Positions 5,271 to 59,556 of a stretch of DNA of 64,000 bases are shown here, one piece after another. Below the pieces are notes generated by a model, which had not been told where the DNA came from, searched no databases, and was given only the letters and a program-made list of their open reading frames with translations. How positions within the stretch are numbered: position 1 is the first letter of the stretch; each line of letters begins with the position of its first letter. The DNA comes from Mobula hypostoma (Eukaryota): positions 9,362,001 to 9,426,000 of the forward strand of contig NC_086108.1 of assembly GCF_963921235.1 (NCBI RefSeq). The letters are read 5' to 3'. The position numbers were made by a program, and so were the translations under genes.

Positions 5271-5369
5271 GTAAAATCACAATGACAAAAGTTTTAGCGC
5301 TAAAGTGGTCCACTGCTCCAGTGCTGATACAAAGAGGGTCATATACTTTGATAATATATATTTTTTATT

Positions 5370-28370: not shown

Positions 28371-29976
28371 GGTCCAAAGATGTTGTCTAGATTGGAGGTC
28401 TTAGTTATCAGGAGGGACAGGATACACTGTGTCTGCTTTCTCTGGAGTGAAGGAGGCTGAGAGGTGAAAATTATAAAACTATGAAAGGGTCAATGGTGTC
28501 TCTTCCCCAGGGTAGGGGAATCTAACATTAGTCCATGAGACCATAAGATATAGGAGCAGAATTCGGCTGTCTGACCCATCGAGTCTGCTCCATCATTTCA
28601 CCACAGCTGATCCAGTTTCCCTCTCAGCCCTAATCTCCCGCCTCTCCCCATATCCCTCAATACACTGACCAATCAAGAATCTTATCAAACTCTGCCTTAA
28701 ATATACATAAAGACGGCTACCACAGCTGCCTGTGGCAAAGAATTCCACAAATTCACCACTCTCTGGCTAAATTCTTCCTCATCTCCATTCTAAATGGACA
28801 CCCTCTATTCTGAGTGTTGTCATTATCATTTGGCATTTAGAAAGTTTGGACTAGCACTGTGTAATCAGTCTTCACACAAGCTTCATTGCAGTCTGTACTC
28901 CAGTGGGAATGCAGGTGAAAAACTCAGCCCCCTCTATACCCGTCCCCAACTACACAACCCCATGTAAAAGCACTGTGGCTGTCACACAGAATTTCTAAGC
29001 CCATATCTCCTTCCTGACGTGAATTCAGTACAACAATCAACAGTTGTTTCCTGACCTGAAAACTGGCTAATTAGGACTTTATTACAAGAGTGAAATGCTT
29101 TCCTCCACTGTCTGGTCCTTTACAATCTTCCTTTGGACGCAGATTGCACTAACAAAAGATCAAAAACACAGGTTGCCCCTGGAGAATGTTTCGGTGAGCG
29201 ACCTTGAACCAGTACCATTCTGCTGAAGATGTTGCCAAAGCTAGTGTAGTGAGGTCCAGGATTTCCAGTGAAGGACAATCAATGTATATTCATGTCAAGG
29301 AGGGATGTGGTCATGGGAATGGGAGGGGTGAGTGTTCAGCATTGTCCACCAGCTTCTTGCTTGCTGCTGCCGGAGAAGGTGTCTGCATGAGGTGGTTTTT
29401 TGCTTGATCATCCCAAGGGAAGTTCCCTGCTTTTGAGTTGTGTTTATAACTCGGCAGATGATGCCGGAACAAGGTTTAGTCCATGTGGATTGTAGTTTTG
29501 GACTATAATTCAGGTTTATGATGTGTTCTAGTTCTGTCACCTTTTTTGTCCCTACCCTTGGATGATTTTTGAACCAGGTGGCCCGTAGATAATGAACAGT
29601 GAGCTGAACTGTACTGAAATATGCCTTTTGATCTTGTGTTTTTATATTCTGTGTTTTTGATCTTTTGTTTTTTGCCGTCTGTGCAATTTTTTTTGCATAT
29701 GGTGGAGAGGGTGGGTTTGATGTTTGATGTTTTTCTTTGAACAGGTTGGTTCCATGGTTCCTCTTTGTTTCGTGACTGTGGGGAAGATGAATCGCAGGGT
29801 TGTATACTGCATACATACTTGTACCTTGTAAATGTACCTTGAATCTTGAAACCTGTTGTTTGATTGTGGGATGTAGGTAACACTGGCAAAAGTTCTAAGA
29901 TTCATTTATTATCAAAGCATGTATCCAAATACAACTTGAAATTTGTCTTCTCCAGATAGCCATGAAAATAATATGT

Positions 29977-30227
29977 TGTAGTCGCGTGCAAACACGCTAC
30001 TAGAGAAACACACAGAGGCAGAGAGAGCTGAACTCAGAATGCCTTTACTGATTCAAAATCATGCGTTTAAATCTCCCCTCCCATGGGCCCCTACGACCCG
30101 CGGGGCAGACGTGACATCAGACTGTCCCCGGAAGGTCCGCCCCGAGCGGGTAGTTCCAAACGCGCTACCGCGTGTCTGCCCGCAGCTCCCGATGGCGATT
30201 CGAGTCCCGCGTGTGCGGGCCGCCACA
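29977..30227 (-). repeat. 3' LTR (251 bp)
   Basis: Direct repeat of 33960-34211, adjacent to the polypurine tract. Confidence 0.95.
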
Positions 30228-30499
30228 CTACCCCCCTCCCCCCCCAGAAATGTCCATCGGGGGAGAGGAGCCCCCAGTCTGTGTGGCTTGCCTGGGTGGC
30301 CGGCGCGGTGCGGGTACCCTCACTGGTTGCCCAATGTCCAAGTGTGCTGGTTTGAGGCAGTCCACTGTAAAAGTCTCTTCCCAGCCCCCACCTCCACGGT
30401 ACACGTTCCGTTGTGCCGGATCACCTTGAAGGGTCCCTCGTACGGCCACTGTAGAGGTGACCTGTGCATGCCGTTGTGAATAAAAACATACTCACAGTC

Positions 30500-33229
30500 T
30501 CAGAGGTCTTTAGGAGTGAAGGATAGTGTGGGACCATGCCTGGAGGTCGGGACCAGTGCCAGGGTCCCGACCTTGTCCCACAGCCTCGTTAGCATCGCTG
30601 CTGGAGTTTCTTCTGAACCTTGGGCCTCTGGTACGAACTCGCCCGGGGGGGGGGGGGGCGCCGTAGACCAATTCCGCCGAGTGTTCAGGTCTTCCTCGGG
30701 GGCTGTGCAGATGCCCAGTAGGACCCAGGGAAGCTCATCTGTCCAGTTGGGGCCCCTGAGGTGTGCCATCAGGGCGGACTTGAGATGCCGGTGGAATCGC
30801 TCTACCAACCCGTTGGACTGGGGATGGTACGCTGTGGTGTGATGCAGCTGGATGCCCAGGAGCTGCGCCAGTGCTGTCCACAAACCAGACGTGAACTGCG
30901 CCCCTCGGTCGGAGGTGATGTCCGTTGGGAGGCCGAACCTGGCGATCCAGTTTGCAATGAGCGTCCTGGCGCAGGACTCAGTGGACGTGTCTGCGAGCGG
31001 TATGGCTTCCGGCCATCTGGTGAACCTGTCTACCATGGTAAAGATATACCTGGCGCCCCAGGGGACTGGCAGGGGGCCGACGATGTCCACGTGGATGTGT
31101 TGGAACCTCCTGTGCATCGGCTGGAACTGCTGGGGGGGAGCCTTCACGTGCTGCTGGACATTGGCGGACTGGCAGTATACGCAGGTCCTGGCGCAGTGTC
31201 CGACCTGTTTGCACAAACCGTGCCAGACGAATCTGTCCGCTATCAGCTTGATGGACGCCCGGATGGACGGGTGGGCCAGGTCCTGCAGCGTGTCGAACAC
31301 CCGGCGCCTCCATGCTGCTGGTACCACGGGTCGGGGTTTGCTGGTAGACACGTCGCACAGGAGTTGATCCGCCGCCAGGCCGATGGAGACGTCCTCCAGC
31401 TGGAGCCCCGAAACGGCGGTGCGGTAAGCCGGGATCTCGGTGTCCGACTGTTGTGCTTCTGCCAGTGCTACATAGTCTATTCCTGAGGACGATATGCCTA
31501 CTGAGTGGAGTCAGGGACGAGACTGTGTGTCGGTGACGACGTTGTTCTTCCCTGCGATGTGGCGGACGTCCGTGGTGAGTTCTGAAATAAAGGACAGCTG
31601 CCTCTGCTGCCGAGCCGACCATGGGTCCGATACCTTGGCCAGTGCGAAGGTGAGGGGCTTGTGGTCCGTATACACAGTGAACTCCCTTCCCTCGAGGAAG
31701 TACCGCAAACGCCGGACAGCCAGGTAGAGCGCTAGCAACTCTCTGTCGAAAGTGCTGTACTTCACCTCTGGTGGCCGTAGGTGCCGACTGTAGAAAGTGA
31801 GTAGTCGCCACTGGTCCTTGACAAGCTGCTCCAGGACTCTGCCCACTGCCGTGTCAGAAGCATCGACTGTGAGTGCCATGGGTACATCGACTCTCGGGTG
31901 CACTAGGAGGGCTGCCCTTGCCAGCACCTCCTTGGCCTGCTCGAACGCCTCCGTGGACTCCTCCCGTGCCACTTCCTTGGCCTTGCCGGCCATCAGGCTG
32001 AACAAGGGTCTCATGATGCGTGCCGCTGCCGGCACGAACCGATGATAAAAGTTGACCATCCCTGTGAACTCCTGCAGGCCCTTGACCGTGCTGGGCTTGG
32101 GGAACTGGCGGATGGCCTGGACCTTGTCCAGTAGGGGCACTTCACAATGTCGGTTGACTCTGTGGCCCACAAGACGATCTCTGTCAGCCCAAACTGGCAC
32201 TTCACTGAATTGATTGCCAGTCCATAGTTGCTCAGGCGTTGGCAGAGCTGGCGCAAATGTGCCACGTGCTCTTGGTGCGAACTGCTGGCCACCAGGATAT
32301 CGTCCAAGTAAGTGAAAACGAAATCCAGGCTGCGTCCCACCGAGTCCATGAGCCTTTGGAAAGTTTGGGCTGCATTCTGGAGACCGAAAGGCATCCTCAG
32401 GAATTCGAACAAGCCGAACGGGGTGATGAGGGGTCTTGGGCACGTCGCCGGGGTGCACTGGGATCTGATGGTATCCCCTGACCAGGTCGATCTTCGAGAA
32501 GGTGGTCGCTCCGTGCAGGTTCGCCGTGGAGTCCTGGATATGGGGTACCGGGTATCTGTCGGCGGTTGTGGCGTCGTTGAGCCTTCTGTAGTCTCAGCAG
32601 GGCCACGGGCAGTCTGAGCGGCGTACGATTCCCATCTCTTCCATCTTACGGAACTCCTCCTTGGCAAGGTGGAGCTTGTCGGGTGGGAGCCTGCGAGCTC
32701 GACGTGCAGCGGTGGCCCTTGCGTGGGGATGTGGTGCTGCACGCCGTGCTTGGAGTCGGCCGTGAAGAACTGTGGGGTGACTATGGAGGGGAATTCCGCC
32801 AACACCCTGGCGAATTCGTTACCCGAGAGGATCACGGAATCCAGGTGGAGGGCCAGTAGCTTGGCTTCTCGGAGCTGGAAAGTCTGGAACGTCTTGGCGT
32901 GGACCAAACGCTGGCCTTTTAGGTCGACCAGGAGGCAGCTGGCTCGTAGGAAATCTGCCCCTAGTAGTGGCTGTGACATCGCTGCCAACGTTAAAGTCCA
33001 AGTGAAATGGCTGGACCCGAAATGCAGTGAGATAGTTCACGGGCCGTACGTCTGAATACTGGTGCCATTTGTACCGGTGAGTTCGGGGCCTGGGACCGCG
33101 TTATGAGTGTCCATGTTTAAGGTGGGGGAGTACGCTGAGTTCGGCCCTGGTGTCTACCAGGAAGCGCCGCCCAGAGTGTTGGTCCCAGAAGTACAGGAGG
33201 CTGTCTTGGTAGCCAGCCATCGTAGCCAT
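30500..33229 (-). pseudogene. Gypsy pol, frameshifted (protease, RT, RNase H, integrase)
   Basis: FLVDT(R)A, MPFGLQNAAQTFQR, YLDD, TVDASD, DRELLA, YTDHKPL, HPSIRAS/CVYC, HVDIVGPLP, SDRGAQF and NGLVERFHR, spread over several frames. Confidence 0.92.
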
Positions 33230-33904
33230 TAACGACGGCTGGCCCTAGCATTTCCCGGAAAAGCACATGGTGGACGGCAGCAGCACGTGCCTGAGCCCCA
33301 TCTTTGGTGACAGAAACACCATTGTTCTGAACTTACATCTTTTTCCCCCGTGGGTCTTGACGGCTTCGGTTGCGGGGCCTGGGCTTTGGGGTGCGCGATC
33401 ATGGCTAGGCCAATGGAGGCTGCTCCACGTTGCTTGCTCTGCCAAAGGACGTCTGCTTTAGCCGCGACCCTGCCTGGGTCGCTGAAATCCTCAATTGCGA
33501 GGAGGAGGCGAATGTCCTCTGGCATTTGCTCGAGGAACAACTGTTCAAATAAAAGGCACGGCTTATGGCCGTCCATGAGCGCCAGCATATCATTCATGAG
33601 CTCGGATAGCGTGTGGTTGCCCGTGTGTAGGAGCCGCGCGGCGGTAGAGTCTGAAGGTACGGATCAGGAGCGCCTTAAGCTTAGTGTAGCTGTCCTCCGT
33701 TGGTGGCTGGTGTAGGAAGTCGATGATCCGGCCTGCCGTCTCCTGGTCGAGTGTGCTGACCACGTAGTAGTACCGCGTGGCGTCGGCTGTAACGTCTCCG
33801 ATATTGAACTGGGCCTCAGCCTGCTTGAACCAAACGTGGGGCTGAGTGGCCCAGAAAGTCGGGAGCTTCAGAGAGACCGCACTGTGCGAGTTGCTCGAAC
33901 TCAT
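33229..33904 (-). pseudogene. Gypsy gag, frameshifted, with a CHCC knuckle
   Basis: AVSLKLPTFWATQPHVWFKQAEAQF...; LFLEQMPEDIRLLL; CFCHQRWGSGTCCCRPPC. Confidence 0.9.
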
Positions 33905-36455: not shown

Positions 36456-38126
36456 ATAGAAAATAGGTGCAGGAGTAGGCCATTTAGCCCTTCGAGCCTG
36501 CACCGTCATTTATTATGATCATGGCTGATCATCCAACTCAGAACCCTGCACCAGCCTTCCCTCCATACCCCCTGATCCCCATAGCCACAAGGGCCATATC
36601 TAACTCCCTCTTAAATATAGCCAATGAACTGGCCTCAACTGTTTCCTGTGGCAGAGAATTCCACAGATTCACCACTCTCTGTGTGAAGAAGTTTTTCCTA
36701 ATCTCAGTCCTAAAAGGCTTCCCCTTTATCCTCAAACTGTGACACCTCGTTCTGGACTTCCCCAGCATCGGGAACAATCTTCCTGCATCTAGCCTGTCCA
36801 ATCCCTTTAGGATTTTATACGTTTCAATCAGATACCCCCTCAATCTTCTAAATTCCAACGAGTACAAGCCCAGTTCATCCAGTCTTTCTTCATATGAAAG
36901 TCCTGCCATCCCAGGAATCAATCTGGTGAACCTTTTTTGTACTCCCTCTATGGCAAGGATGTCTTTCCTCAGATTAGGGGACCAAAACTGCACACAATAC
37001 TCCAGGTGTGGTCTCACCAAGGCCTTGTACAACTGCAGTAGTACCTCCCTGCTCCTGTACTCGAATCCTCTCGCTATAAATGCCAGCATACCATTCGCCT
37101 TTTTCACCGCCTGCTGTACCTGCATGCCCACTTTCAATGACTGGTGTATAATGACACCCAGGTCTCGTTGCACCTCCCCTTTTCCTAATCAGCCACCATT
37201 CAGATAATAATCTGTTTTCCTATTTTTGCCACCAAAGTGGCTAACTTCACATTTATCCACATTAAATTGCATCTGCCATGAATTTGCCCACTCACCCAAC
37301 CTATCCGAGTCACCCTGCATCCTCTTAGCATCCTCCTCACAGCTGACACTGCCACCCAGCTTCGTGTCATCCGCAAACTTGGAGCTGCTGCATTTAGTTC
37401 CCTCATCCAAGTCATTAATATATATTGTAAACAACTGGGGTCCCAGCACTGAGCCTTGCGGTACCCCACTTGTCACCGCCTGCCATTCTGAAAAGGTCCC
37501 GTTTATTCCCACTCTTTGCTTCCTGTCTGCTAACCAATTCTTTATCCACATCAATACCTTACCCCCAATACCGTGTGCTTTAAGTTTGCACACTAATCTC
37601 CTGTGTGGGACCTTGTCAAAAGCCTTTTGAAAATCCAAATATACCACATCCACTGGTTCTCCCCTATCCACTCTACTAGTTACATCCTCAAAAAATTCTA
37701 TGAGATTCGTCAGACATGATTTTCCTTTCACAAATCCATGCTGACTTTGTCCGATGATTTCACTGCTTTCCAAATGTGCTGTTATCACATCTTTGATAAC
37801 TGACTCCAGCAGTTTCCCCACCACCGACGTTAGGCTAACCGGTCTATAATTCCCCGGTTTCTCTCTCCCTCCTTTTTTAAAAAGTGGGGTTACATTAGCC
37901 ACCCTCCAATCCTCAGGAACTAGTCCAGAATCTAACGAGTTTTGAAAAATTATCACTAATGCATGCACTATTTCTTGGGCTACTTCCTTAAGCACTCTGG
38001 GATGCAGACCACCTGGCCCTGGGGATTTATCTGCCTTTAATCCCTTCAATTTACCTAACACCACTTCCCTACTAACATGTATTTCGCTCAGTTCCTCCAT
38101 CTCACTGGACCCTCTGTCCCCTACTA
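36456..38126 (-). mobile_element. Young 5'-truncated CR1 LINE (RT region, one nonsense change)
   Basis: ORFs 37189-38100 and 36538-37173 are nearly identical to 21829-24655. Inserted into a host repeat that resumes at about 38127. Confidence 0.95.
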
Positions 38127-38539
38127 CTTCAGATGAACTGGAAGTTGCCCTCTGGTGCCATCTGCTTGGTAAAATCTAATCAAATCTTACCCATTGAACC
38201 CTGTGTTGGGTGTGTATCTGGCAATGGATTGTAACACATTGGAATATCGCTCAGTCCTCAGGATGTCCCGTGGGAGTCAGTCTGTAGAGGGTAACTACAG
38301 AACTGGTGTTGGGCAGGATGGAGTGAGGCGTGTGACTGCTCCGAGACATGGGGTTCAGAGTGTCCCCTCAACAGTCCATTGAGTGCAAGTCACCTCTGGG
38401 GTCAGATCACTCAGATTCACTCTCTCTCATCAACATCTTGACAGTGAGAGAAGCTGCAGTCTTCCCCTTGTCTGCACAGCTCCATAAGGAGAAATCCAGT
38501 GGTGAGATTGGCTTTATTAGCATACAGTAAAATGTGCCA

Positions 38540-40530: not shown

Positions 40531-40998
40531 CCCCTCATAGTCCCCTTAAACATGTCACCTTTCACCCTTAATCCATGACCCCTGGTTGTAGTCCCACCCC
40601 AACCTCAGTGCAAAAAGCCTGCTTGCATTTACCCTATCTATACCCCTCATAATTTTGTATCTCACTATCAAGTCTCCCCGCAACCTTCTAAATTCCGGAA
40701 GTAAATCTATTTAATCTTATAACTCAGGTCCTCCAGACCCAGCAACATCCTTATAAATTTCCTCTGTACCCTATCTTATTTACACCTTTCCTGTTGGCAG
40801 GTGACCAAAACTACACAAAACACTCAAAATTAGGCCTCACCAACATCTTATAAAACTTCAACAAACATCCCAAAGTACTCAGTACTTTGATTTATGAAGG
40901 CCAGTGTGGCACAAGCTTTTTCATTCTGATTATTTTGATGTTGCGATAAACTAACAGCAACCCTGATGACACATGGATATTTATTCTGCCTATTTCAG

Positions 40999-41197
40999 AG
41001 TATTTGAAAAAGTGAAAAGTCGAAACGCCCACATGAAATGCCACAGACAACAAGAGGAACAAGAAAGGCAGGAGAAGATGAAACGATCAAGAATTCGGTT
41101 GAAAGTTGAGATAAAGGAGGAACCAGAGGAGGCGGTTGTAGTCTTCGACCCAAACAATCTGCCTGACATCACCAAACCATTGGGAGCTCACCACTAG
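40999..41197 (+). CDS. ZNF541: ZNF541-like terminal coding exon, K-VFEKVKSRNAHMKCHRQQEEQERQ...PLGAHH*
   Basis: tatttcag acceptor in phase 2 completes the finger CKECTKVFEKVKSRNAHMKCH. TAG stop at 41195-41197. Confidence 0.9.
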
Positions 41198-44115: not shown

Positions 44116-44447
44116 ATGTCTTTTCACTCCTTGAAGAAAAACACTCAGCCTACTGAGGGGAAAACTCAGGTAGAGACACAAGAATACTCTGATCCAATCT
44201 CCCTCACATCTGGTGCCACCTCACCGGGGCCCCAATGGACTTTTCACCCATTAGCCAGAATGTAGCCACACTGCTGTCTGTAGCAAGGACTGAACAGTAA
44301 GGTCTGTAGAATTTCCCAATCCTCCTGTAGGACAGAGTTAAATTGGAGCTATATCCTGCTTCTAGGGAGGAACCTACAGCAAAAACAAGATACTACCCAG
44401 CCTCAGACTCCATTTTCTTATAATGAAAAGCCAACTCAATGAAACAG

Positions 44448-44470
44448 TTTAATATTAAAACATCTTTAAT
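44448..44470 (-). terminator. Candidate ERH polyadenylation signals (ATTAAA x2)
   Basis: TTTAAT on + at 44448 and 44465, about 620 nt past the ERH stop. Confidence 0.45.
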
Positions 44471-45084
44471 CTGCAAAAATCACAAATACAACCAGAGAAA
44501 GCAAGAATAAAGGTTACTGGATAAGGAGACCTTTGTCTGGCAGATACGCAGCATGTCCCTAAGGGAAGTTTCAGTGTTCTAGGAAGCGCGTCTAACCAAA
44601 ATGTCATTTCCTAACAACCACACTTAGCGTCGCGCTAAGGATATCACAGAAAAAAGTGTTTGCAAAACCACTAACAACGAGTTGTCCTGCATGCAAGAAA
44701 ACTGGACGTCTGAACAGATGACAGGCAAGTTTGTCAGGGTCCTTGCCAGGAAAAAAAGCATCAAAGGGTTCATATGACATTACTTGCATCTAGGATGCTA
44801 TTAAGAACATACAAGACTCTTCATTGCATTGAACACGGGTCTATCTTAAAACAGCAATGCATGATTTTTCTAAAAAAAAGAGCTAATGGATGGTGGTCGG
44901 GGGGGGGGAGACAGGGAAAAAATTCAAAATTATTTCTACAAAAATACCTCAGATCTCGAATCAGTGTACTTAGGTACAGCCGAGACCTGGAGAGGAACAT
45001 CTGTGAACTACAAAGAAAAAAGAACACAAATTGGTAGAACCGCTCTCTCCGAGCCAAGCATGGATCAGAAGAGACAGGCCAAAG

Positions 45085-45187
45085 TTATTTCCCTGCCTGC
45101 TGTGCCTGCCGGCGAAGCAGAATGTAGATCTTCTCCTTCAGCCAGTCCTTATTGTACGGCTGGTACGTCTGTGTGTCTGCTCGGTAA
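45085..45187 (-). CDS. ERH: ERH exon 4, V-YRADTQTYQPYNKDWLKEKIYILLRRQAQQAGK*
   Basis: ttccacag acceptor; 103 nt to the TAA stop. Confidence 0.97.
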
Positions 45188-46529
45188 CTGTGGAACAAAA
45201 CAAATACACTTAGTTTAATATGCTTCATCAGAATATCAACAGGAGCTTTGGTATCGAGTGTTGAAAAGCCCAAATAGAGTGGACGAGGAGAGGATATTCC
45301 CCATAGTGGGGGAGTCTAGGACCAGAGGGCACCGCCTCAGAATAAAGGGACATACATTTAGAAGAGAGATGGGACAGAACTTCTGTAGACAAAGGATGGT
45401 GAACCTTTGTAATTCATTGCTGCAGACAGTCTGGGTATATTTAAACCAAAGGTTAAGTTCTTCATTAGTAAGGGTGTCAAAGGTTACAGGAGAATGGGGC
45501 TCAGAGGGATAGTAAATCAGCCATGATGGAGCAGCAGAGCAGATTCAATGGGCTGAATGGCCTAATTCTGCTCTTATGACATTGTCTTAAACAGATACTA
45601 CACCTCAGCTTCCTCCTGATATCCCCACAATGACAGATGTTGATTCTTTGAGCAATTGAATTCACTGCCATGTGCCCACATGAAGTGAGACAGCAGTGGA
45701 TGACACAGAAGGCTTGGGTACCAGACCATGGGACTGAAGACCTGTCCTCCAGGAGAGGAACAACATATTCATGCACAGAAAGTGCCACACACTGATCATA
45801 AACAGGAGAGACTCTCAACACCCCAACAATGTTCAGGGATGTCACAGTACTGACTGGAAAATGACCAGCCACAAGGCTTGGACCAGGCAAGGAGCAGCAA
45901 GTGACTTGCCCCGAGAGAACAGGACAGAGCAGCCTCTGCGATCGGTATCCCACCCACCTGTAGAAAGTTAGGAACTCCGCCAGCTCCATCACAGGCTCTA
46001 GCCTCCTGAGGATTGAAGATACTTACAAAAGGTGGTGTCCATCATTAAGGACCCCATCACCCAGGCCATGCCCTCTTCTCATTGCTACCATCAGCGAGGA
46101 GGTACAGAAGTGTGAAGACACACACTGAACGATTCAGGAACAGCTTCTCCCCCTCTGCCATCCCATTTCTGAATGGGCAATGAACCCATGAGCACTACCT
46201 CGCTATTTTTTCTATTTCTATTTTTGCACTACTTAATATATACTTGGTATTGTAATTTATAGTTTTTTTTATTATGTGTTGCATTGTACTGCTTCTGCAT
46301 ACAACAAATTTCACGACGTATACCGCTGATATTAAAACTATATTTGATTCGTATTTAGGTTGGATGAATTCGGAATCTGGGTGAGCTTTTAAGCCTGATT
46401 CTTGCACTTGTGGGACCAGGCCTGGTCTGACAAACCTGCTCCCAACATTCCACCCAGCTGCTCGATTCAGCACCCCATTAACACCAGGAATTACTGGGAC
46501 TCAATTTAAAATGGATCCGATCAACACAT

Positions 46530-46885
46530 CGGGGGGGGGGGGTGATGTCTGAATAAAAAGGGAAAGGAGGCTGGCCAGGTGGGTGGGAAAGGTCAACAGC
46601 TGGAGAGGAAGGAATCTGATAGGAGAGTAGAGAAAAGGAAGGAGGAGGGACCCCAGGGGGAGGTGATAGGCAGGAGAGGGGAATAGAAGTGGTTGCAGGG
46701 TGGGGGGAATTTGTGATTTTTTTCACCAGGAGAAATCAATATTCATGCCATCAAGTTGGTGGGTACGCAGACAGAATACAAGGTGTTGCTCCTCCACCTG
46801 AGGGGGGCCTCATCTTGGCACAAGAGGCAGCTACGGACCCAGAACAGGAATGGGATTCAAAATTAAAATGTTTGGCCACTGAAAT
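46530..46885 (-). mobile_element. Penelope-like remnant flanked by a diverged direct repeat of about 75 bp
   Basis: Homologous to 34525-35010. Flanks 46451-46524 and 46888-46963 are similar to each other. Confidence 0.65.
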
Positions 46886-48051
46886 TGCACCACAGCTCCT
46901 CAATTCAGCATCCCATTAACACTGGGAATTATTAGGGGCTCAATTCAAACTGGATCTGACCAAACTGCTTTTCAGTGACTTTACACTCGCCAAGAAGCCC
47001 ATTCAGACCTGTACTGCTAGTAATCAGATCCACATCTTACAGTTAGAACGCCATACGCCTGCTCTCCGTTTGCTGCCTCTTTGATAAGTACTTAGCTAGC
47101 CCTACACTGGTAGACTAACTCCACAAACAGGTACAATGTATTCATAATCCATCAGTTAGTGGGGTTTGTATCCGGTGGCCTCAGGAAGCTGTGTTCAGAA
47201 TCAGGTTTAATTAAATAAGTTGTGCAAAAATAGCGAGGTAGTGTTCACGGGTTCGATGTCCATTCAGAAATCGGATGGCAGGGGGGGAAGAAGCTGTTCC
47301 TGAATCATTGAGCGTGCATCTTCTGTACCTCTTCCCTGATGGTTCAATGAGAACAGGGCATGACCTGGGTGATGGGGGTCCTTAATGATAGACACCGCCT
47401 TTTTGAGTCATCACTTCTTGAAGATGTCCTGGATACTATGGAGGTTAGTGCCCATGATGGAGCTACTCTCTGCAGCTTAATTCAATCCTGTGCAGTTGCC
47501 TCCCGCCCCCACCCCCAGACGGTGGTGCAGCAGTTAGAATGCTCTTCATGGCACATCTGTAGAAACTTGCGAATGTTTTGGGTGACAAAACAAATCTCAA
47601 GTTCTTAAAAGTAGCTTTGCCACTCCTGAGTAACGAGGTGAACGTTGGATAAATTTCACGTAAGACTTAAGTGTATAAAAATCCCAAATGAGCAGAGCCT
47701 CAAAGGCCAGCACAGAGGGGCGAAGCTGAAATACAGGAGGTGAATCTCTAACTCTAGTAGAAAATGCAAAGTCCTGAGGACCAAATGGAAGCAACGGACT
47801 TCCCTGGAGTGACAAGGCTAATGGTTAACCAAGGTATTGCAAAGGAATTCAAATAGAGATCGGCTGCAGGAGACAACAGACGCTGGAATCTGGAGCAACA
47901 AACAATCTGCAGGAGGAAGTCGGCAGGTCGAGCAGTGTCTGTAGGAGGAGAGGAATTGTCTTGTTTCAGGTGGAAATCCTGCATTAGGACTTGTCCCTCT
48001 GTTCGAGGGCTGAAAGACCTCTGCTGAGACACAACTGGCAACTGCACTTAC

Positions 48052-48172
48052 ACGAGACAGCTCAGGTCAGCAAGGTCGTCAATGAAGTCGAAGAGTTGGC
48101 TGATGTCGTATGTGATAGAGGGGCTGTTGGGGTTCATCCGTTTCAGATGCTCTTCAAACATTTTACAGACAC
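48052..48172 (-). CDS. ERH: ERH exon 3, [41 protein letters not shown]
   Basis: ccatag acceptor and gtaagt donor; 121 nt, phase 1 to 2. Not in the ORF track. Confidence 0.97.
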
Positions 48173-50259
48173 CTATGGACAAACAAACAAACACAAACTT
48201 AATGTATTTAACACCCAACTTGATGCAAAACCTTTAATGCACGAGCAATGGATGCAAGCTGAATTGCCTCCCCTCATGATGCATAACTTGGCACTCCCTC
48301 CCAGCTCATTACCTCCCTCAAAGGGGAAACAATCGGAGAAATCACGGCAGAAACAACAAAATGACTGAGGGACGTTATCAAATGAACTTTAAGTGATGCC
48401 AGGGCAAACGATGTTTGGTCTCAGGTCAATTGATTTAAACTCTTTATTGAGGATCCAACAGTAACTTCTTATTAGAGCTGGAAATATTCCGTTTGACAGG
48501 CAACAGATCTGAAAGGAAACATTTCCAATTGCAGACTTCCACAGCATGGAAACAGGCCCTGCTACCCAACTCATGCTTGCTGACTGCACTGTCCAGTGAG
48601 CTAGTCCCATCTGCCCACCTCTGGCCTATAGCCCTCGAGACAAAGCACAGAACCAGCTCTTCCAGCTGCACCACCCAGCAGCCTCCGATTTAATCCCAGC
48701 CTAATCACGGGACAATTTGCAGTGACCAATTAACCTACCAATCGGTACGTCTTTGGACTGTGGGAGGAAACTCTCACGGTCACGGGGAGAATGTACAGAC
48801 AGCAGTGAGAATTGAACCTGGGCTGCCTGTACTGTAAAGCTGTGCGCTCTCCACATGCCTCGAAACCTCTGCTCTCCATGTACATACCTACACGTTGCTA
48901 ATGCGCCCACCTCAACCCACTACTTCTGGCAGCTCATTCCAAATACGTGAATAAACTGCGAATATCCTTTAAATCTCTTGCCTCTGGTCGTAAACCTATG
49001 CCCCCTTTTCAGTTATCACCCTCTCCAAGTGCACTCACCAACAGCTTATACCAAAACTTCCCAACTTCTGTGCCCGATGTTATGACCGACAAAGGCCAGT
49101 GTCGCCTTCTTCACCTGCACTGGTTGGCAATCAGACTCCTTCTGACAGATGTTATCCAAAATAATACGGCTTTTTCCCAATTTCAAGGATTTCCAGCAGC
49201 CTTTGTTGCTCATTAAACAAGTAAGCGTGGGGTGGCACGGCAGCATAGTGGCTAGCACAAGGCTTTACAGTACCAGCATCCTGAGTTCAATTGCCCCCGC
49301 CGCCTGCATGGAGTTTGCACATTCTCCCCGTGACCGTGTGGGTTTTCCCCAACAGTCCAAACACACCAGTGATAGATTAATTGATCACTGTAAGTTGTCT
49401 TGTGATTAGGCTAGGATTAAATCAGGAGATTGCTGAGCGGTAAAGTTCAAAAAGCTTATTCCACGCTGTATCACACTAAATAAATAATCAGGATTTGACC
49501 ACACTCCAAACCTCACAGAGAGGTGAATACAAACAGCCTCAGCGGAGAAGCAGCATTGATGATTCTGCCTGGGAGATTCAGAGGCCTGCTGAGAGCCAAG
49601 AGAGGAATGGATGAGGGACTAGAGACCTCAGGAGTCTACTTGGGCTGAGCAGTTAATAACAAAGTAGAGGAGGTGTGAGAGGCAGCAGACACTGGGGTCT
49701 GGAGCAACAGACAATCTGCTGGATGAACCCAGCAGGTCGAGCAGCGTGTGTGGGTGAAAGGAATAGTTTCTGCTCCGGGACTATTTGCAGTGCTTCAAGG
49801 ATTTAAATAACTTGCCTCAGCACAGAACCTAAACTAACTTGGGACGTCTTAAAGTTACATATTATATAAACACGAGAAATTCTGTAGATGCTGGAAATCC
49901 ACAGCACACACAAAATGCTGGTGGAATTCAGCAGATCAGGCAGCATCTGTGGAGAGGAATAAACAGTCGACATGTCAGGCTGAGACCCTTCATCAGAACT
50001 CTCAAATGAAGGAGCTCATCCCAAAATGTCAACTCCTTTTTCCCTTTCCACAGATTCTGTCTATTCCCATTTCACTCCATTGCTCAACACACCGAGTTCC
50101 TCCAGCTGGTTGTCTGTCGGCCCAGAAATCTAAAACAGTGCCTGGGCTTAGGTGCAAGTTAGAAATGACCAGGTTGCCCCAACTCCCAGTTACAGCTCGG
50201 TAATGAAGCAGAGAATAATACACCTCACATTTCTGGTCAGATTAAGTGGAGTACTCTAC

Positions 50260-50347
50260 CTTCCATACACTCATTGACAGATTCATAGTCGGCATACGTC
50301 CTGCCTTCTGGTCGTTTTGTGGGCTGCACCAGCAGGATGGTGTGTGA
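50260..50347 (-). CDS. ERH: ERH exon 2, [30 protein letters not shown]
   Basis: cttttcag acceptor and gtagag donor; 88 nt, phase 0 to 1. Confidence 0.97.
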
Positions 50348-50454
50348 CTGAAAAGAGTGAGGCGATGAGTGTCTGAGTAATGGTCTGCTCAACTCCTCCG
50401 TCACCGATTCAGTATCCCTGGCCTCCACACCCCAATCTCCTCAGGTTGGCTAAG

Positions 50455-51105
50455 TCTCTTCTCCCCTCCCTCCCCCTACCTCTCCTCCTTCCTATCCATT
50501 CCACTTCTCCCTGTCCTTCACCCTCACCCACCAACCCCTCTCCCTCCCTCACTAACCCCTCTCCCACCCTAACCTCTCTATCCCCTCCCTCCTACCCCCA
50601 CTACCCCCTCTCCCTCCCTCCCCCACTACCCCCTCTCCCACCCTATCCCCTCCCCTCCCTCCCCCACTACCCCCTCCCTTCCTCCCCCACTAACCCCTCT
50701 CCCACCCTCCCCCACTAACCCCTCCCACCCTCCCCCACTAACCCCTCTCCCTCTCTCCCCCACCAACCCCTCTACCTCTCTCCCCCACCAGCCCCGCTCC
50801 CTCTCCCACCCTATCCCCTCCCCTCCCTCCCCCACCACCCCCTCTCCCTCTCCCACCCTATCCCCTCCCCTCCCTCCCCCACCACCCCCTCTCCCTCTCC
50901 CACCCTATCCCCTCCCCCACTACCCCCTCCCTCACCCTCCCTCCCCACCACCCCTCTCCCTCCCCCACCACCTCTCCCTCTCCCACCCTATCCCCTCCCC
51001 TCCCTCCCCCACTACCCCCTCTCACCCTCCCCCACTATCCCCTCTCCCTCCCTCACTACCTCCCTATCCCCTCCCCTCCCTCCCCCACTACCCCCTCTCA
51101 TTTCC
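50455..51105 (-). repeat. G-rich (minus strand) low-complexity tract in ERH intron 1
   Basis: Dozens of C3-C5 runs on +, with recurring units CCCTATCCCCTCCCCTCCCTCCCCCAC. Confidence 0.9.
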
Positions 51106-51387
51106 TTGCCCCACACACCCTCCCTACCGTCAGTGAATGCTCTATTTTTACGCTCTATTCTTGGTTGGTGCGGCTGTAAGGAAACCAAATTTCCCTCGGG
51201 ATTAATAAAGTATACCTATCTATCTATGCTACAGCAAAGCACCCTCTCCCTTCCCTCCATCGCACCCCACCACTCATCTGAACTGGAGGCCAAAGATCTG
51301 CAACACCCCGCATCCCTACACCTCCTCCTCCAACCCAGACCACCTCCGCCCTCTCTCCTCCCTCCTCCCAACAAAAACAACTTTCAC

Positions 51388-51390
51388 CAT
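51388..51390 (-). CDS. ERH: ERH exon 1 coding part (ATG only)
   Basis: aaaATG followed by a gtgaaa donor. Exons total 3+88+121+103 = 315 nt, i.e. 104 aa plus stop, the canonical ERH length. Confidence 0.85.
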
Positions 51391-51399
51391 TTTCCCCCA

Positions 51400-51525
51400 C
51401 GAGCCCCGTCCGGACAAGAAATGGAAACCGGAAAGCTGCTCCGCGCGACCTTCCACCCGGAACAGCAGTGACGTCACGCCGCGTCCTATCTCTCCGCGCC
51501 ACCCCTCGATGCGATTGGCTGAAAG
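51400..51525 (-). promoter_or_regulatory. CpG-rich ERH promoter with ETS, CRE and CCAAT motifs
   Basis: CCGGAA at 51428 and 51457, palindrome GTGACGTCAC at 51468-51477, AGCCAATCG on minus at 51512-51520. No TATA box seen. Confidence 0.75.
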
Positions 51526-51974
51526 TTCAGAGAAACTTTTCATTTTGTAAAAAACTTTGTTGGATGGAAACAGGAACCAACATCGGGGTTAATGTATACG
51601 TGACTGGGTCCAGTGTTCACCCGGCGGGTCGGTGTGCCTCGGACCAGGGCTGACGTTCACCCAGACCTCATCCGGCTCGTCGGGGGGGGGGGGGGGTCCG
51701 TACAGCTGCTAAGCAGCGGGGCAACGGTCCCCCGACCCACTCCAGTCAGTCTGCACCGTCACCGTACCTATCCACCGCTCTACCTTCCACAGTTCAGGTA
51801 GACAAGGCTACTCTGACTCACTGTAGAGATCTGGGAACCTACAGATCCGGAGGTGATACATCAACTGTCGATACTGTACTTGCAAACTGCTGGAAAGTCT
51901 CAGCGTGTCAGGCAGTTGTGGACGGAAATGCACAGTTGACTTCTCAGGCTGAGTGCTAACCGGAAGACCACAAT

Positions 51975-53220
51975 CTATGCGGATTGGTAATAACATCTCC
52001 TCTTCTCTGACGATCGACACTGGTGCACCTCAGGGGTGTGTGCTTAGCCCACTGCTCTACTCTCTCTATACCCATGACTGAGTGATTAGGCATAGCTCAA
52101 ATGCCATCTACAAATTTGCTGATGATACAGTCATTGTTGGTAGAATCTCAGGTGATGACGAGAGGCCGTACGGGGGTGAGATATGCCAACTAGTGCAGTG
52201 GTGTCGCAGCAACAACCTGGCACTCAACGTCAGTAAAATGAAAGAGCTGATTGTGGACTTCAGGAAGGTAAGACAATAGACAATAGGTGCAGGAGTAGGC
52301 CATTCAGCCCTTCCAGCCAGCACCACCATTCACTGTGATCATGGCTGATCATCCACAATCAGTACCCTTTTCCTACCTTCTCCCCATATCCCTTTGCTCC
52401 GCTACCTTTAAGAGCTCTATCTAACTCTTTTTTGAAAGAATCCAGAGAATTGGCCTCCACTGCCTTCTGAGGCAGAGCATTCCACAGAACCACAACCCTC
52501 TGTGTGAAAGAGATGAAGGAACACATGCCAATCCTCATAGAGGGATCAGAAGTGGAGAGAGTGAGCAGATTCAAGTTCCTGGGTGTCAAGATCTCTGAGG
52601 ATCTAACCTGGTCCCAACATATTGATGTCGTTATAAAGAAGGCAAGACAGCGGCTATACTTTATTAGGAGTACAAATATACTCAAAAACTTCTATAGATG
52701 TTCCTTGGAGAGCATTCTGACAGGCTGCATCACTGTCTGATGTGGAGGGGCTACTGCACAGGACCAAAAGAAGCTGCAGAAGGTTGTAAATTTAGTCGGC
52801 TCCATCTTGGGTACTCGCCTACAATGTACCCAGGACATCTTCAAGGAGCGGCATCTCAGAAGGGCAGCGTCTATTATTAAGGACCTCCAGCACCCAGCGC
52901 ATGCCCTTTTCTCACTGTTACCATCAGAGAGGAGATACAGAAGCCTGAAGGCACATACTCAGCGATTCAGGAACAGCTTCTTCCCCTCGGCCATCTGATT
53001 CGTAAATGGACATTGAACCCTTGGACACTACCTCACTTTTTAAAAAATATATAGTATATTTTTGCACAATTTTTAATCTATTCAATATATATATATTGTA
53101 TAAAGTATACTAAATAAGATTTATTTTTTTTCTAGATTATGTATTGCATTGAACTGCTGCTACTAAGTTAACAAATTTCACAACACATACTGGTGATATT
53201 AAACCTGATTCTGATTCTGT
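51975..53220 (+). mobile_element. Rex1/Babar-like LINE fragment with a nested CR1 3' end (about 52274-52507, -)
   Basis: KFADDTVIVGRIS...LALNVSKMKELIVDFRK resumes as MKEHMPILIEGSEVERV after the CR1 insert; (GATTCT)n tail. Confidence 0.85.
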
Positions 53221-53885: not shown

Positions 53886-56800
53886 ACATAGAAACATAGA
53901 AACATAGAAAATAGGTGCAGGAGTAGGCCATTCGGCCATTCGAGCCTGCACCGCCATTTATTATGATCATGGCTGATCATCCAACTCAGAACCCTGCACC
54001 AGCCTTCCCTCCATACCCCCTGATCCCCGTAGCCACAAGGGCCATATCTAACTCCCTCTTAAATATAGCCAATCAACCGGCCTCAACTGTTTCCTGTGGC
54101 AGAGAATTCCACAGATTCACCACTTTCTGTGTGAAGAAGTTTTTCCTAATCTCAGTCCTAAAAGGCTTCTCCGTTATCCTCAAACTGTGACCCCTCGTTC
54201 TGGACTTCCCCAACATCGAGAACAATCTTCCTGCATCTAGCCTGTCCAATCCCTTTAGGATCTTATACGTTTCAATCAGATCCCACCTCAATCTTCTAAA
54301 TTCCAACGAGTACAAGCCTAGTCGATCCAGTCTTTCTTCATATGAAAGTCCTGCCATCCCAGGAATCAATCTGGTGAACCTTCTTTGTACTCCCTCTATG
54401 GCAAGGATGTCTTTCCTCAGATTAGGGGACCAAAACTGGACACAATACTCCAGGTGTGGTCTCACCAAGGCGTTGTACAACTGCAGTAGTACCTCCCTGC
54501 TCCTGTACTCGAATCCTCTCGCTATAAATGCCAGCATACCATTCGCCTTTTTCACCGCCTGCTGTACCTGCATGCCCACTTTCAATGACTGGTGTATAAT
54601 GACACCCAGGTCTCGTTGCACCTCCCCTTTTCCTAATCGGCCACCATTCAGATAATAATCTGTTTTCCTATTTTTGCCACCAAAGTGGATAACTTCACAT
54701 TTATCCACATTAAATTGCATCTGCCATGAATTTGCCCACTCACCCAACCTATCCGAGTCACCCTGCATCCTCTTAGCATCCTCCTCACTGCTAGCACTGC
54801 CACCCAGCTTCGTGTCATCCGCAAACTTAGAGATGCTGCATTTAGTTCCCTCATCCAAGTCATTAATATATATTGTAAATAACTGGGGTCCCAGCAATGA
54901 GCCTTGCGGTACCCCACTAGTCACTGCCTGCCATTCTGAAAAGGTCCCGTTTATTCCCACTCTTTGCTTCCTGTCTGCTAACCAATTCTCCACCCACACC
55001 AATACCTTACTCCCAATACCGTGTGCTTTAAGTTTGCACACTAATCTCCTGTGTGGGACCTTGTCAAAAGCCTTCTGAAAATCCAAATATACCACATCCA
55101 CTGGTTCTCCCCTATCCACTCTACTAGTTACATCCTCAAAAAATTCTATGAGATTCGTCAGACATGATTTTCCTTTCACAAATTCATGCTGACTTTGTCC
55201 GATGATTTCACCGCTTTCCAAATGTGCTGTTATCACATCTTTGATAACTGACTCCAGCAGTTTCCCCACCACCGACATTAGGCTAACCGGTCTATAATTC
55301 CCCGGTTTCTCTCTCCCTCCATTTTTAAAAAGTGGGGTTACATTAGCCACCCTCCAATCCTCAGGAACTAGTCCAGAATCTAAAGAGTTTTGAAAAATTA
55401 TCATGAATGCATGCACTATTTCTTGGGCTACTTCTTTAAGCACTCTGGGATGCAGACCATCTGGCCCTGGGAATTTATCTGCCTTTAATCCCTTCAATTT
55501 ACCTAACACCACTTCCCTACTAACATGTATTTCGCTCAGTTCCTCCATCTCACTGGACCCTCTGTCCCCTACTATTTCTGGAAGATTATTTATGTCCTCC
55601 TTAGTGAAGACAGAACCAAAGTAATTATTCAATTGGTCTGCCATGTACTTGCTCCCCATAATCAATTCACCTGTTTCTGTCTGTAGGGGACCTACATTTG
55701 TCTTTACCAGTCTTTTCCTTTTTACATATCTATAAAAGCTTTTACGGTCAGTTTTTATGTTCCCTGCCAGTTTTCTCTCATAATCTTTTTTCCCCTTCCT
55801 AATTAAGCCCTTTGTCCTCCTCTGCTGAACTCTGAATTTTTCCCAGTCCTCAGGTGAGCCACTTTTTCTGGCTAATTTGTATGCTTCTTCTTTGGAATTG
55901 GTACTATCCCTAATTTCTCTTGTTAGCCACGGGTTCACTACCTTGCTTGATTTATTCTTTTGCCAAACTGGAATGAACAATTGTTGTAGTTCATCCATGC
56001 AATCTTTAAATGCTTGCCATTGCATATCCACTGTCAATCCTTTAAGTGTCATTTGCCAGTCTATCTCAGCTAATTCACGACTCATACCTTCAAAGTTACC
56101 CCTCTTTAAGTTCAGAACCTTTGTTTCTGAATTAACTATGTCGCTCTCCATCTTAATGAAGAATTCCACCATATTATGGTCACTCTCACCCAAGGGGCCT
56201 CTCACGACAAGATTGCTAATTAACCCTTCCTCATTGCTCAAAACCCAGTCTAGAATAGCCTGCTCTCTAGTTGGTTCCTCGACATGTTGGTTCAAAAAAC
56301 CATCCCGCATACATTCCAAGAAATCCTCTTCCTCAGCACCTTTACCAATTTGGTTCACCCAATCTACATGTAAATTGAAGTCACCCATTATAACTGCTGT
56401 TCCTTTATTGCACACATTTCTAATTTCCTGTTTACTACCATCTCCGACCTCACTACTACTGTTAGGTGGCCTGTACACAACTCCCACCAGCGTCTTCTGC
56501 CCCTTAGTGTTACGCAGCTCTACCCATATCGATTCCACATCTTCCCGGCTTATGTCCTTCCTTTCTATTGCGTTAATCTCATCTTTAACCAGCAACACCA
56601 CCCCACCTGCTTTTCTTTCATGTCTATCCCTCCTGAATATTGAATATCCCTGAACGTTGAGCTCCCATCCCTGGTCACCCTGGAGCCATGTCTCTGTGAT
56701 CCCAACTATATCATAATCATTAATAACAAGCTGCACTTTCAATTCATCCACCTTATTACGAATGCTCCTTGCATTGACACACAAAGCCTTCAGGCGCTCT

Positions 56801-57097
56801 TTTACAACTCTCTTAGCCCTTATACAATTATGTTGAAAAGTGGCCCTTCTTGATGCTTGCCCTGGATTTGTCGGCCTGCCACTTTTACTTTTCTCCTTAC
56901 TACTTTTTGCTTCTACCCTCACTTTACACCCCTCTGTCTCTCTGCACTGGTTCCCATCCCCCTGTTGTGAACTAACCTCCTCTCGCCTAGCCTCTTTAAT
57001 TTGATTCCCACCCCCCAACCATTCTAGTTTAAAGTCACCTCAGTAGCCCCCGCTAATCTCCCTGCCAGGATATTGGTCCCCCTAGGATTCAAGTGTT
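53886..57097 (-). mobile_element. Young CR1 LINE with the end of ORF1 and a near-complete ORF2
   Basis: ORF1 end HLNPRGTNILAGRLAGATEVTLN* (stop 57024-57026). ORF2 of 981 codons (EN+RT) stops about 30 aa early. (CATAGAAA)n tail. Confidence 0.97.
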
Positions 57098-57454: not shown

Positions 57455-59556
57455 AACCATATAACAATTACAGCACGGAAACAGGCCATCTCAGCCCTTC
57501 TAGTCCATGCCGAACTCTTACCCTCACCTAGTCCCACCGACCTGCACTCAGCCCATAACCCTCCATTCCTTTCCTGTCCATATAGCTGTCCAATTTAACT
57601 TTAAACAACAACATCAAACCTGCCTCAACCACTTCTGCTGGAAGCTCGTTCCACACAGCTACCACTCTCTGAGTAAAGAAGTTCCCCCTCATGTTACCCC
57701 TAAACTTTTGCCCTTCAACTCTCATGTCCTCTTGTTTGAATCTCTCCCACTCTCAATCGAAAAAGCCTATCCACGTCAACTCTATCTATCCCCCTCATAA
57801 TTTTAAGTACCTCTATCAAGTCCCCCCTCAACCTTCTACGTTCCAAAGAATAAAGACCCAACTTGTTCAACCTTTTTCTGTAACTTAGGTGATGAAACCC
57901 AGGTAACATTCTAGTAAATCTTCTCTGTACTCTCTCTATTTTGTTGACATCTTTCCTATAATTCGGTGACCAAAACTGTACACAATACTCCAAATTTGGC
58001 CTCACCAATGCCTTGTACAATTTCAACATTACATCCCAACTCCTGTACTCAATGCTCTGATTTATAAAGGCCAGCATGCCGAAAGCTTTCTTCCCCACCC
58101 TATCCACATGAGAGTCGACATTCAGGGAACTATGCACCATTATTCCTAGATCCCTGTGTTCCACAGCATTCTTCACTGCCCTATCATTTACCATGCATGT
58201 CCTATTTTGATTAGTCCTACCAAAATGTAGCACCTCACATTTATCAGCATTAAACTCCATCTGCCATCTTTCAGCCCACTCTTCTAACTGGCCTAAATCT
58301 CTCTGCAAGCTTTGAAAACCTACTTCATTATCCACAACTCCACCTATCTTAGTATCATCTGCATACTTACCCATCCAATTTACCACCCCATCATCCAGAT
58401 CATTAATGTATATGACAAATAACATTGGACCCAGTACAGATCCCTGAGGCACACCACTAGTCACCGTCCTCCAAACTGACAAACAGTTATCCATCACCAC
58501 TCTCTAGCGTCTCCCATCCAGCCACTGCTGAATCCATTTTACTACTTCAATATTAATACCTAACGATTGAACCTTCCTAACCAACCTTCCATGTGGGACC
58601 TTGTCAAAGGCCTTACTGAAGTCCATATAGACAACATCCACTGCTTTACCCACGTCAACTTTCCTAGTAACCTCTTCAAAAAATTCAATAAGATTTGTCA
58701 AACATGACCTTCCACGCACAAATACATGTTAACTGTTCCTAATCAGGCCCTGTCTATCCAGATAATTATATATACCATCTCTAAGAATACTTTCCATCAA
58801 TGTACCCACCACTGACATCAAACTCACAGGCCGATAATTGCTAGATTTACTCTTAGAACCCTTTTTAAACAATGGAACATGAGCAATACGCCAATCTTCC
58901 GGCACCATCCCCGTTTCTAATGACATTTGAAATATTTCTGTCAGAGCCCCCGCTATTTCCACACTAACTTCCCTCAAGGTCCTTGGGAATAACCTGTCAG
59001 GACCCAGAGACTTATCCACTTTTATATTCCTTCAAAGTTCCAGTACCTCCTCTTCTTTAATCATCATAGTTTCCATAACTTCCCTACCTGTTTCCCTTAC
59101 CTTACACTATTCAATATCCTTCTCCTTAGTGAATACTGAAGAAAAGAAATTTTTCAGAATCCTCCCCCATCTCTTTTGGCTCCACACATAGCTGTCCACT
59201 CTGATTCTCTAAGGGACCAATTTTATCCCTCACTATCCTTTTGCTATTAATATAATTGTAGAAACCCTTGGGATTTATTTTCACCTTACTTGCCAAAGCA
59301 ACCTCATATCTTCTTTTAGCTTTTCTAATTTCTTTAAGATTTTTTTTACATTCTTTATATTCCTTGAGCACCTCATTTACTCCATTCTGCCTCTATTTAT
59401 TGTATATGTCTCTCTTTTTTTGAACCAAGTTTCCAGTATCCCTTGAAAACCATGGCTCTCTCAAACTTTTAACCTTTCCTTTCACCCTAACAGGAACATA
59501 AAGATTCTGTACCCTCAGAATTTCACCTTTAAATGAGCTCCATTTCTCTATTACAT
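57455..59556 (-). mobile_element. Older CR1 subfamily copy, frameshifted
   Basis: GVPQGSVLGP, YADD, YMDFSKAFDKV and SNYRPVSL across ORFs 57528-59371. Confidence 0.9.

Follow-up and report, generated by a model that had tools for sequence, protein, structure and literature searches.

A second, intact gene for ERH (enhancer of rudimentary homolog) lies in a 64,000-nucleotide stretch of the Mobula hypostoma genome, C50:9,362,001-9,426,000 of 3.48 Gb, which at its full length we call the window. We use ERH2 for this copy and ERH1 for the copy on the SLC39A9 side, found on contig C1. With a probability of about 0.8, we read ERH2 as an ohnolog, a paralog from vertebrate genome duplication, that was kept in elasmobranchs and works as an ordinary ERH adaptor. 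Its origin by genome duplication is very probable, because of the synteny of paralogous blocks, the introns common to both copies, the saturation of synonymous sites and a protein that is identical in sharks, skates and rays. The same evidence supports an earlier, sequence-only reading of the window, which had proposed a whole-genome-duplication paralog kept in this lineage.

Two ERH genes and the blocks that hold them

ERH2 is encoded by four exons on the minus strand. Transcript support was taken from contigs of four public runs without tissue labels, which we guess to be RNA, compared over positions 44300-50440; the joint of exons 1 and 2 lies outside that stretch. The coding parts are as follows.

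51388-51390, minus: exon 1, coding part (ATG only), with the GT donor next to it; in the Mobula RefSeq model P0025 these bases are likewise spliced to exon 2
50260-50347, minus: exon 2, 88 nt, residues 2-31, from the frame and PF01133; joined to exon 3 in 3/4 runs
48052-48172, minus: exon 3, 121 nt, bearing F36, from the frame, PF01133 and run joints
45085-45187, minus: exon 4, coding part, 103 nt, with L87, I93 and the TAA stop; joint 45187>48052 to exon 3 in 4/4 runs

These parts form a 315-nt coding sequence for 104 amino acids (aa) with no stop or frameshift, and 3/3 introns run GT..AG, with the ends of the second and third introns in the runs as predicted. The intact four-exon gene with canonical splice sites described earlier is thereby confirmed. 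The Pfam family ER (PF01133) matched exons 2 and 3 above its cut-off (65.7 and 38.6 bits) and exon 4 above cut-off when taken with its in-frame neighbours (25.3 bits), and ERH2 belongs to the family both by the curated cut-off and by its length (family about 100-110 aa). Y36F, I87L and V93I are its sole differences from the mouse PDB-construct sequence P0040, and the same three appear in the PDB alignment; two alignments to PDB sequences thus give precisely the changes from mammalian ERH that had been claimed. An in-frame upstream ATG at 51543 (51391-51543, minus) corresponds to a 51-residue N-terminal extension of the Mobula model P0025, as against 104 aa in the ERH2 records of other species.

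A genome-wide search with the Pfam ERH profile (profile searches covered the whole genome) returned seven matches, namely the three window exons, three on C1 (101.57-101.59 Mb) and one on C5; the last was dropped as a third ERH (tblastn E=2). The C1 gene, ERH1, encodes Y36/I87/V93 and S102. It stands head-to-head with SLC39A9, the two ATGs being about 340 bases apart on opposite strands and the last Zip exon at C1:101.50 Mb, and MIDEAS lies 0.6 Mb away. A second locus beside SLC39A9 with these residues had been expected, and its presence on C1 excludes a single relocated ERH. None of the 35 Zip-family matches in the genome falls on C50, and neither the first nor the last exon of the C1 SLC39A9 gave a match in the window at E<=1. 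The earlier statement that no SLC39A9 exon lies upstream of ERH2 agrees with this, the 52-64 kb part of the window showing repeats.

The two genes have equal exon sizes (3/88/121/103 nt), which argues that ERH2 is not a retrocopy, and all three intron positions are common to both. Their coding sequences differ at 69/315 nt, 60 of them third positions (78% nucleotide identity), and at 27/34 fourfold sites. The proportion of synonymous differences (pS) is 0.98, that is, saturated, the nonsynonymous proportion (pN) is 0.022, GC content at third positions is 0.64 versus 0.45, and the proteins are identical at 100/104 residues. Saturation, low pN and common introns together indicate an old duplication at the DNA level, with both copies strongly purified by selection. 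ERH2 is under purifying selection and shows none of the marks of a pseudogene or retrocopy (broken frame, intron loss, relaxed selection). In run X6, which carries the second of two organism labels, 15/522 bases of the untranslated region (UTR) differ, compared with 0/222 of exons 3 and 4 (Fisher p=0.008). Nothing was found in favour of an artefact, be it a pseudogene, a haplotype left uncollapsed or a single ortholog that has moved: the two loci sit on different contigs with different neighbours and are only 78% identical, and ERH2 combines an open frame, splicing and purifying selection with the same protein in other species, so that the probability of such an artefact is negligible.

ERH2 is tail-to-tail with a ZNF541-like gene, as the sequence-only reading had it.

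5195-41197, plus: ZNF541-like gene, 3' part, with exons at about 5195-5272, 9539-9631, 24799-24957, 26096-26263 and 40997-41197; convergent with ERH2

Its stop codon (TAG, 41195-41197) is about 3.9 kb from that of ERH2, and the window starts 13 kb after its ELM2 exon. Among 21 protein matches to the SANT exon in the window, 19 were named ZNF541 or ZNF541-like and two hypothetical, all from cartilaginous fishes. A neighbour that proved to be MIDEAS within 14q24-type synteny would have refuted the earlier reading; the SANT exon on C1 (102.17 Mb) is closer to human MIDEAS (25/27 residues, 47.3 bits) than the one in the window (15/21, 28.7 bits), which places MIDEAS on C1.

The wider setting was examined with 10 marker families, picked beforehand from the human 14q24 and 19q13 map.

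C50, 3.0-9.4 Mb: SNAP 3.0, OTX 3.75, NUMB 4.28, SIPA1L 4.65, actinin 6.9, EHD 9.02, BICRA-type 9.04 and ELM2-SANT 9.35 Mb
C1: actinin 83.9, SLC8A 84.8, SIPA1L 87.9, EHD 99.4, ELM2-SANT 102.2 and NUMB 104.4 Mb
C1, farther away: OTX 55.9 and reticulon 38.2 Mb

Eight of the 10 families have a member in the C50 block, 8/10 on C1 and 6/10 in both; with loci placed uniformly, 0.06 families would be expected in the C50 block, which makes up about 0.2% of the genome. Further members of the marker families lie on C22, C2, C82 and C40. ERH and the ELM2-SANT gene are convergent on both C1 and C50. The two ERH copies lie in paralogous blocks. For the human side, we take the marker positions, other than those of the OTX genes, from general background, and the subfamily names ACTN4, NUMBL, EHD2 and NAPA are putative. 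OTX2, CRX and OTX1 are at 14q22.3, 19q13.32 and 2p15 (PMC2211742).

These data suggest a history in which an early vertebrate whole-genome duplication would have doubled a block with ERH, an ELM2-SANT gene (MIDEAS/TRERF1/ZNF541), EHD, ACTN, NUMB, SIPA1L and OTX. One copy of ERH would have remained by SLC39A9 and MIDEAS (C1, human 14q24 type) and the other by ZNF541, BICRA and EHD (C50, human 19q13 type). On the ERH2 lineage, three conservative changes would then have become fixed ahead of the shark-ray split, with none added afterwards.

Several other members of these families were seen. The ELM2-SANT member on C22 is probably TRERF1, to judge by a motif, and humans have three genes of the MIDEAS/TRERF1/ZNF541 type. 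A fourth, divergent ELM2 gene of this type, L018 (G000:C82:3.905-3.906 Mb, minus), is 41% identical to the ZNF541-like ELM2 exon and 66% on the next exon; C82 also has actinin, reticulon, SLC8A and EHD members, and L018 is possibly a fourth ohnolog without a human counterpart. SLC8A, MTA-type ELM2 and reticulon members, of families with none on C50, lie on C40 (G000:C40, at 12.4, 39.6 and 41.8 Mb), which may carry a piece that broke away from this paralogous block. A second SLC39A9-like gene, L035 (G000:C2:122.403 Mb, minus), has a last exon 60% identical over 75 residues to that of SLC39A9 on C1; it is likely another retained ohnolog of this block, near the C2 members of EHD and SLC8A. A gene named 'Slc39a9-2' occurs in the supplement of the little skate genome paper (PMC10115646).

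Distribution and age of the second copy

The exact 104-aa ERH2 protein has at least four NCBI accessions and is recorded on 18 contigs, the species named for it being Chiloscyllium punctatum and Amblyraja radiata, and the whale shark has the same protein core. Records named from Mobula hypostoma match both the ERH and the ZNF541-like SANT exon of the window without a difference; as they could derive from this very genome or a closely related one, they were not counted as independent support. The setting beside ZNF541 recurs in the accession numbers: XP_043536661.1, an exact match, directly follows the ZNF541-like records XP_043536656-660 of C. plagiosum, and ZNF541-like accessions of Carcharodon, Rhincodon and Scyliorhinus canicula are 34, 68 and 134 numbers from ERH2 accessions, the species of the ERH record in three of the four pairs being taken from the number range. 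In the whale shark, the contigs that carry ERH and the ZNF541-like gene are equal in length. Sharks and skates split about 286 million years ago (PMC10115646). The same core in sharks, skate and ray implies that ERH2 has been unchanged for about that time, and by these sequences and the synonymous saturation the duplication is older than the shark-ray split.

We compared 197 ERH-type proteins, comprising the listed 120 of 537 and 120 of 717 matches and cluster members, 33 of them without the C-terminal part; the main protein cluster was represented by 15 of its 422 members among those listed. The combination F36/L87/I93 occurred in 3/197, all elasmobranch, and Y/I/V in 150/197. F36 alone was found once (the teleost Dallia) and I93 alone in 4/197, all teleosts, and the chimaera ERH records examined are Y/I/V. 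The copy of the canonical type varies among elasmobranchs (G000:C1:101,588,079-101,588,181; P0011, P0031, P0197), with A102S in three rays and D59G in a Y/I/V-type protein of the catshark Scyliorhinus torazame.

The view that ERH is invariant and single-copy in bony vertebrates proved too strong, in that F36 and I93 occur singly in teleosts and Caranx melampygus has two ERH models. Most genomes are described as carrying a single ERH gene, whose sequence hardly varies in vertebrates for a reason that is still open (PMC10605862). Three teleost models among P0090, P0179, P0199 and P0081 fuse a single Kunitz domain to ERH from exon 2 onward, the two models of Caranx melampygus being in the same set. 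The fusions are probably read-through from an upstream gene, and the Caranx models hint at two erh loci in some teleosts. These models bear on the idea that the ohnolog also survives in some bony fishes as a 19q13-type copy without the marker residues, hidden among records named 'ERH'. Such a Y/I/V copy would be invisible to protein searches, and few members of the main cluster (15 of 422) were among those listed; the teleost genome duplication, as general knowledge has it, is a simpler source of two copies, and the review PMC10605862 lists a single ERH in its human and zebrafish-type comparisons, naming no vertebrate that has two. We regard a hidden bony-fish copy as unlikely.

Some observations weigh against an origin by genome duplication, or against an ordinary role. 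The ELM2 exon compared with human MIDEAS ranks the window's neighbour first (50.5 bits, against 46.7 for C22 and 41.9 for C1), which makes this exon non-diagnostic. Two of the 10 families, reticulon and SLC8A, had no C50 member in the genome-wide search, the bounds of the C50 block were set after the matches had been seen, and the expectation of 0.06 is rough. Synonymous saturation gives a lower bound on age only, and the proteins differ at 3-4 sites. No F36/L87/I93 was found in chimaera or bony vertebrates among the 197 proteins, which fits a later duplication on the elasmobranch stem as well as it does loss elsewhere. Residues that appear frozen for about 286 million years, two of them at highly conserved positions (Y36 and I87), would also fit a specialised paralog.

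In a later origin, ERH alone would have been duplicated at the DNA level on the stem of the elasmobranchs or of the chondrichthyans, with the copy inserted by chance beside ZNF541. The restriction of the three residues to elasmobranchs among the 197 proteins and the Y/I/V chimaera records speak for it, and saturation of synonymous sites needs just a few hundred million years. The insertion would have had to hit the block paralogous to its source, about 0.2% of the genome, and to land convergent to the ELM2-SANT gene as on C1, and we hold a later duplication to be highly improbable.

Protein surfaces, expression and surrounding elements

ERH is a nuclear dimer that binds its partners 2:2 (PMC10605862; PMC7641749; bioRxiv 10.1101/2025.09.23.678008; PMC3755989), and in mammals it maintains H3K9me3 repression (PMC13526840). 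ERH2 retains the family-invariant residues H3, L7, Q9, D66 and Y79 and the dimer residues I5, L7, Q9, R17, Y19, D21, L70 and Y79 (lists from PMC10605862). Also the same are residues of the DGCR8 groove (L6, V8, P10, P14, T18, M35, R42, F60 and L64; PMC7641749), of the SAFB2 cleft (E30, K34, E37, I50-D53, S55 and L95; bioRxiv 10.1101/2025.09.23.678008) and a further listed set (H3, Q9, R17, D66, E37, H39, K41 and T51; PMC3755989). None of positions 36, 87 and 93 is a contact in these lists, and Y36 and I87 are at positions that the review lists as highly conserved (PMC10605862).

From 97% identity to solved structures, the fold is expected to be beta1-beta2-alpha1-alpha2-beta3-beta4-alpha3. A single-sequence model (predicted local distance difference test score 64) gave three helices and three strands that follow one another as this fold requires, with beta2 not formed. 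On a helical wheel whose helix bounds come from this low-confidence model, F36 (12 degrees) and L87 (15 degrees) are predicted on the hydrophobic side and I93 (135 degrees) on the outer side.

The unchanged contact residues suggest that ERH2 would dimerise and bind DGCR8, SAFB and CIZ1 in the nucleus, and the identical listed dimer residues, as the basis for it, make heterodimers of ERH2 and ERH1 plausible. ERH2 would then be a small nuclear dimer bridging partners 2:2, with DGCR8 in one groove and SAFB or CIZ1 in the helical cleft. Gene dosage, or expression shared with ERH1 and driven by a CpG-island promoter of its own, may explain its retention, rather than any new activity of the protein. 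We consider it somewhat more probable than not that the two proteins can stand in for each other at the known surfaces, that ERH2 can form heterodimers and that it is kept by dosage or shared expression.

The upstream and downstream regions of ERH2 hold the following features.

51000-52000, no strand: CpG-rich promoter region with ETS-like, CRE (cAMP response element) and CCAAT motifs, from base composition and motif matches
50455-51100, no strand: C-rich low-complexity repeat in intron 1, seen in the sequence
44448-45084, minus: 3' UTR, with ATTAAA at 44465-44470 and 44448-44453, from motifs

The predicted promoter, already described earlier as present at the gene, has GC 0.54-0.59 and an observed/expected CpG ratio of 0.69-0.80 over 51,000-52,000. 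Its putative motifs, which are sequence matches, are CCGGAA at 51428 and 51457, the palindrome TGACGTCA at 51469 and CCAAT (minus) at 51514. GC skew is -0.49 in 50001-52000. Spliced or high-depth contigs of the runs extend to 44469-44591 in the 3' UTR. The four runs represent at most four samples from two studies under two organism labels, and depth was not used to rank expression; the exon 3-4 joint is present in all four and the exon 2-3 joint in three. A spliced contig of run X2 continues 657 bases past exon 2, which may reflect the 5' end or an overlapping transcript of the opposite strand.

H3K4me3 HiChIP in the embryonic pectoral fin of the little skate shows a loop whose bait is the 'Erh' promoter on the microchromosome Leri_38C (supplement of PMC10115646). 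The entry, at Leri_38C:670,000-680,000, is plain 'Erh', without the -1/-2 suffix that some paralog pairs have, and is the sole ERH match in the part of the supplement available. The label 'Erh.1' was dropped as a sign of a second copy, since '.1' is on every gene in the table. Leri_38C also has Hnrnpul1, Tbcb, B9d2, Itpkc, Clptm1 and Ccdc97 in that supplement part, all of which we take to be 19q13 genes. By gene content, we infer that this 'Erh' is the ERH2 ortholog, in which case its promoter is active in somatic tissue. The germline specialisation once suggested for ERH2 found no support, the promoter of the presumed skate ortholog being an H3K4me3 bait in embryonic fin.

Specialisation more broadly would leave the origin as it is, with F36, L87 and I93 retuning a helical face such that ERH2 or its heterodimers prefer other partners or a restricted tissue, for example the germ line. 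The triple is confined to elasmobranchs (3/197, as against 150 with Y/I/V) and stays the same in sharks, skates and rays, whereas the copy on the SLC39A9 side shows variation (A102S, D59G). F36 falls between M35 of the DGCR8 groove and E37 of the SAFB/CIZ1 cleft, only two positions separate I93 from L95, and C. elegans ERH-2 is a precedent (PMC10605862). Against these stand the lack of a listed contact at 36, 87 or 93, the predicted placement of these residues on the helical wheel, the single occurrence of F36 and of I93 in teleosts, and the many substitutions that ERH tolerates in cells (PMC10605862; PMC3755989). In addition, the skate Leri_38C promoter is a loop bait in embryonic fin, spliced forms appear in 4/4 presumed RNA runs (tissues not given), and ZNF541 and ERH2 are convergent with no common promoter. 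A specialised ERH2 is rather unlikely. A bolder and doubtful proposal is a three-species ERH system in elasmobranchs (ERH1 homodimer, ERH2 homodimer and heterodimer), in which buried or cleft-side changes might shift the choice between DGCR8 groove and SAFB/CIZ1 cleft, and in some skates ERH2 might even be the main or only ERH.

Elsewhere in the window, the following elements were noted.

About 29,900-33,700, minus: GC-rich element like a long terminal repeat (LTR) retrotransposon, in several broken pieces, with reverse transcriptase, RNase H and integrase-like frames recognised by eye
21795-24554 (plus), 54076-57039 (minus), 36541-38175 (minus) and 57718-58503 (minus): elements of the long interspersed nuclear element (LINE) type, from long open frames
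About 1,700-3,050, no strand given: array of tandem repeats, strongly skewed between the strands (GC skew -0.37 and AT skew 0.39 in 2001-4000)

The LTR-like element sits in an intron of the ZNF541-like gene. The LINE-type frames at 21795-24554 and 54076-57039 have 920 and 988 codons, and the elements of this type are closely alike.

Comparison with known systems

RefSeq names ERH2 plain 'ERH', and both copies are annotated 'enhancer of rudimentary homolog'. Cartilaginous fishes are already known to retain a class of ohnologs, and ERH2, already auto-annotated, is not a new kind of system. In the literature searched, with subscription journals mostly outside the search, we found no description of a vertebrate or shark ERH paralog, and the supplements of PMC10208646 (4 files) and PMC8455134 (12/24 files) gave 0 matches. 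The main text of PMC10115646, as available, also gave 0 matches for ERH, which may still be on the paper's case list.

With three changes followed by a frozen sequence, a second ERH lineage in vertebrates supplies natural variants that could go straight into binding and rescue experiments, and a small example on which to test the dosage-driven retention of adaptor genes after genome duplication. If the frozen residues do shift partner choice, ERH2 would be a natural separation-of-function allele of ERH. It also entails a risk of hidden paralogy, in that 'ERH' records, primers and orthology sets for sharks and rays may mix two genes.

ERH2 is closest to vertebrate ERH itself (human 14q24.1; PDB 1W9G, 7CNC, 7X39 and 9RMV; PF01133), with which it agrees at 101/104 residues, in the listed dimer and partner-contact residues, and in having four exons and a 315-nt coding sequence (PMC10605862). 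It differs in Y36F, I87L and V93I, in its place next to ZNF541 under a promoter of its own, where vertebrate ERH is head-to-head with SLC39A9, and in coexisting with a canonical copy. The human pseudogenes ERHP1 and ERHP2 are likewise extra ERH-like loci in a vertebrate genome (PMC10605862); ERH2, in contrast, has retained introns and shows both splicing and purifying selection. Among genomes with two ERH genes, the available part of the same review names moss and C. elegans and does not mention sharks (PMC10605862). The ray resembles C. elegans, with ERH-2 of PETISCO/PICS, and moss in carrying two genes; C. elegans ERH-1 and ERH-2 are 39% identical and ERH-2 has its own partners, whereas the ray pair, of independent origin, is identical at 100/104 residues. 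In the little skate genome, 68 cases of differentially retained ohnologues were reported, 19 of them chondrichthyan-only (PMC10115646), and ERH2 resembles such cases as a further copy that sits in a small paralogous block and has been retained in both sharks and rays.

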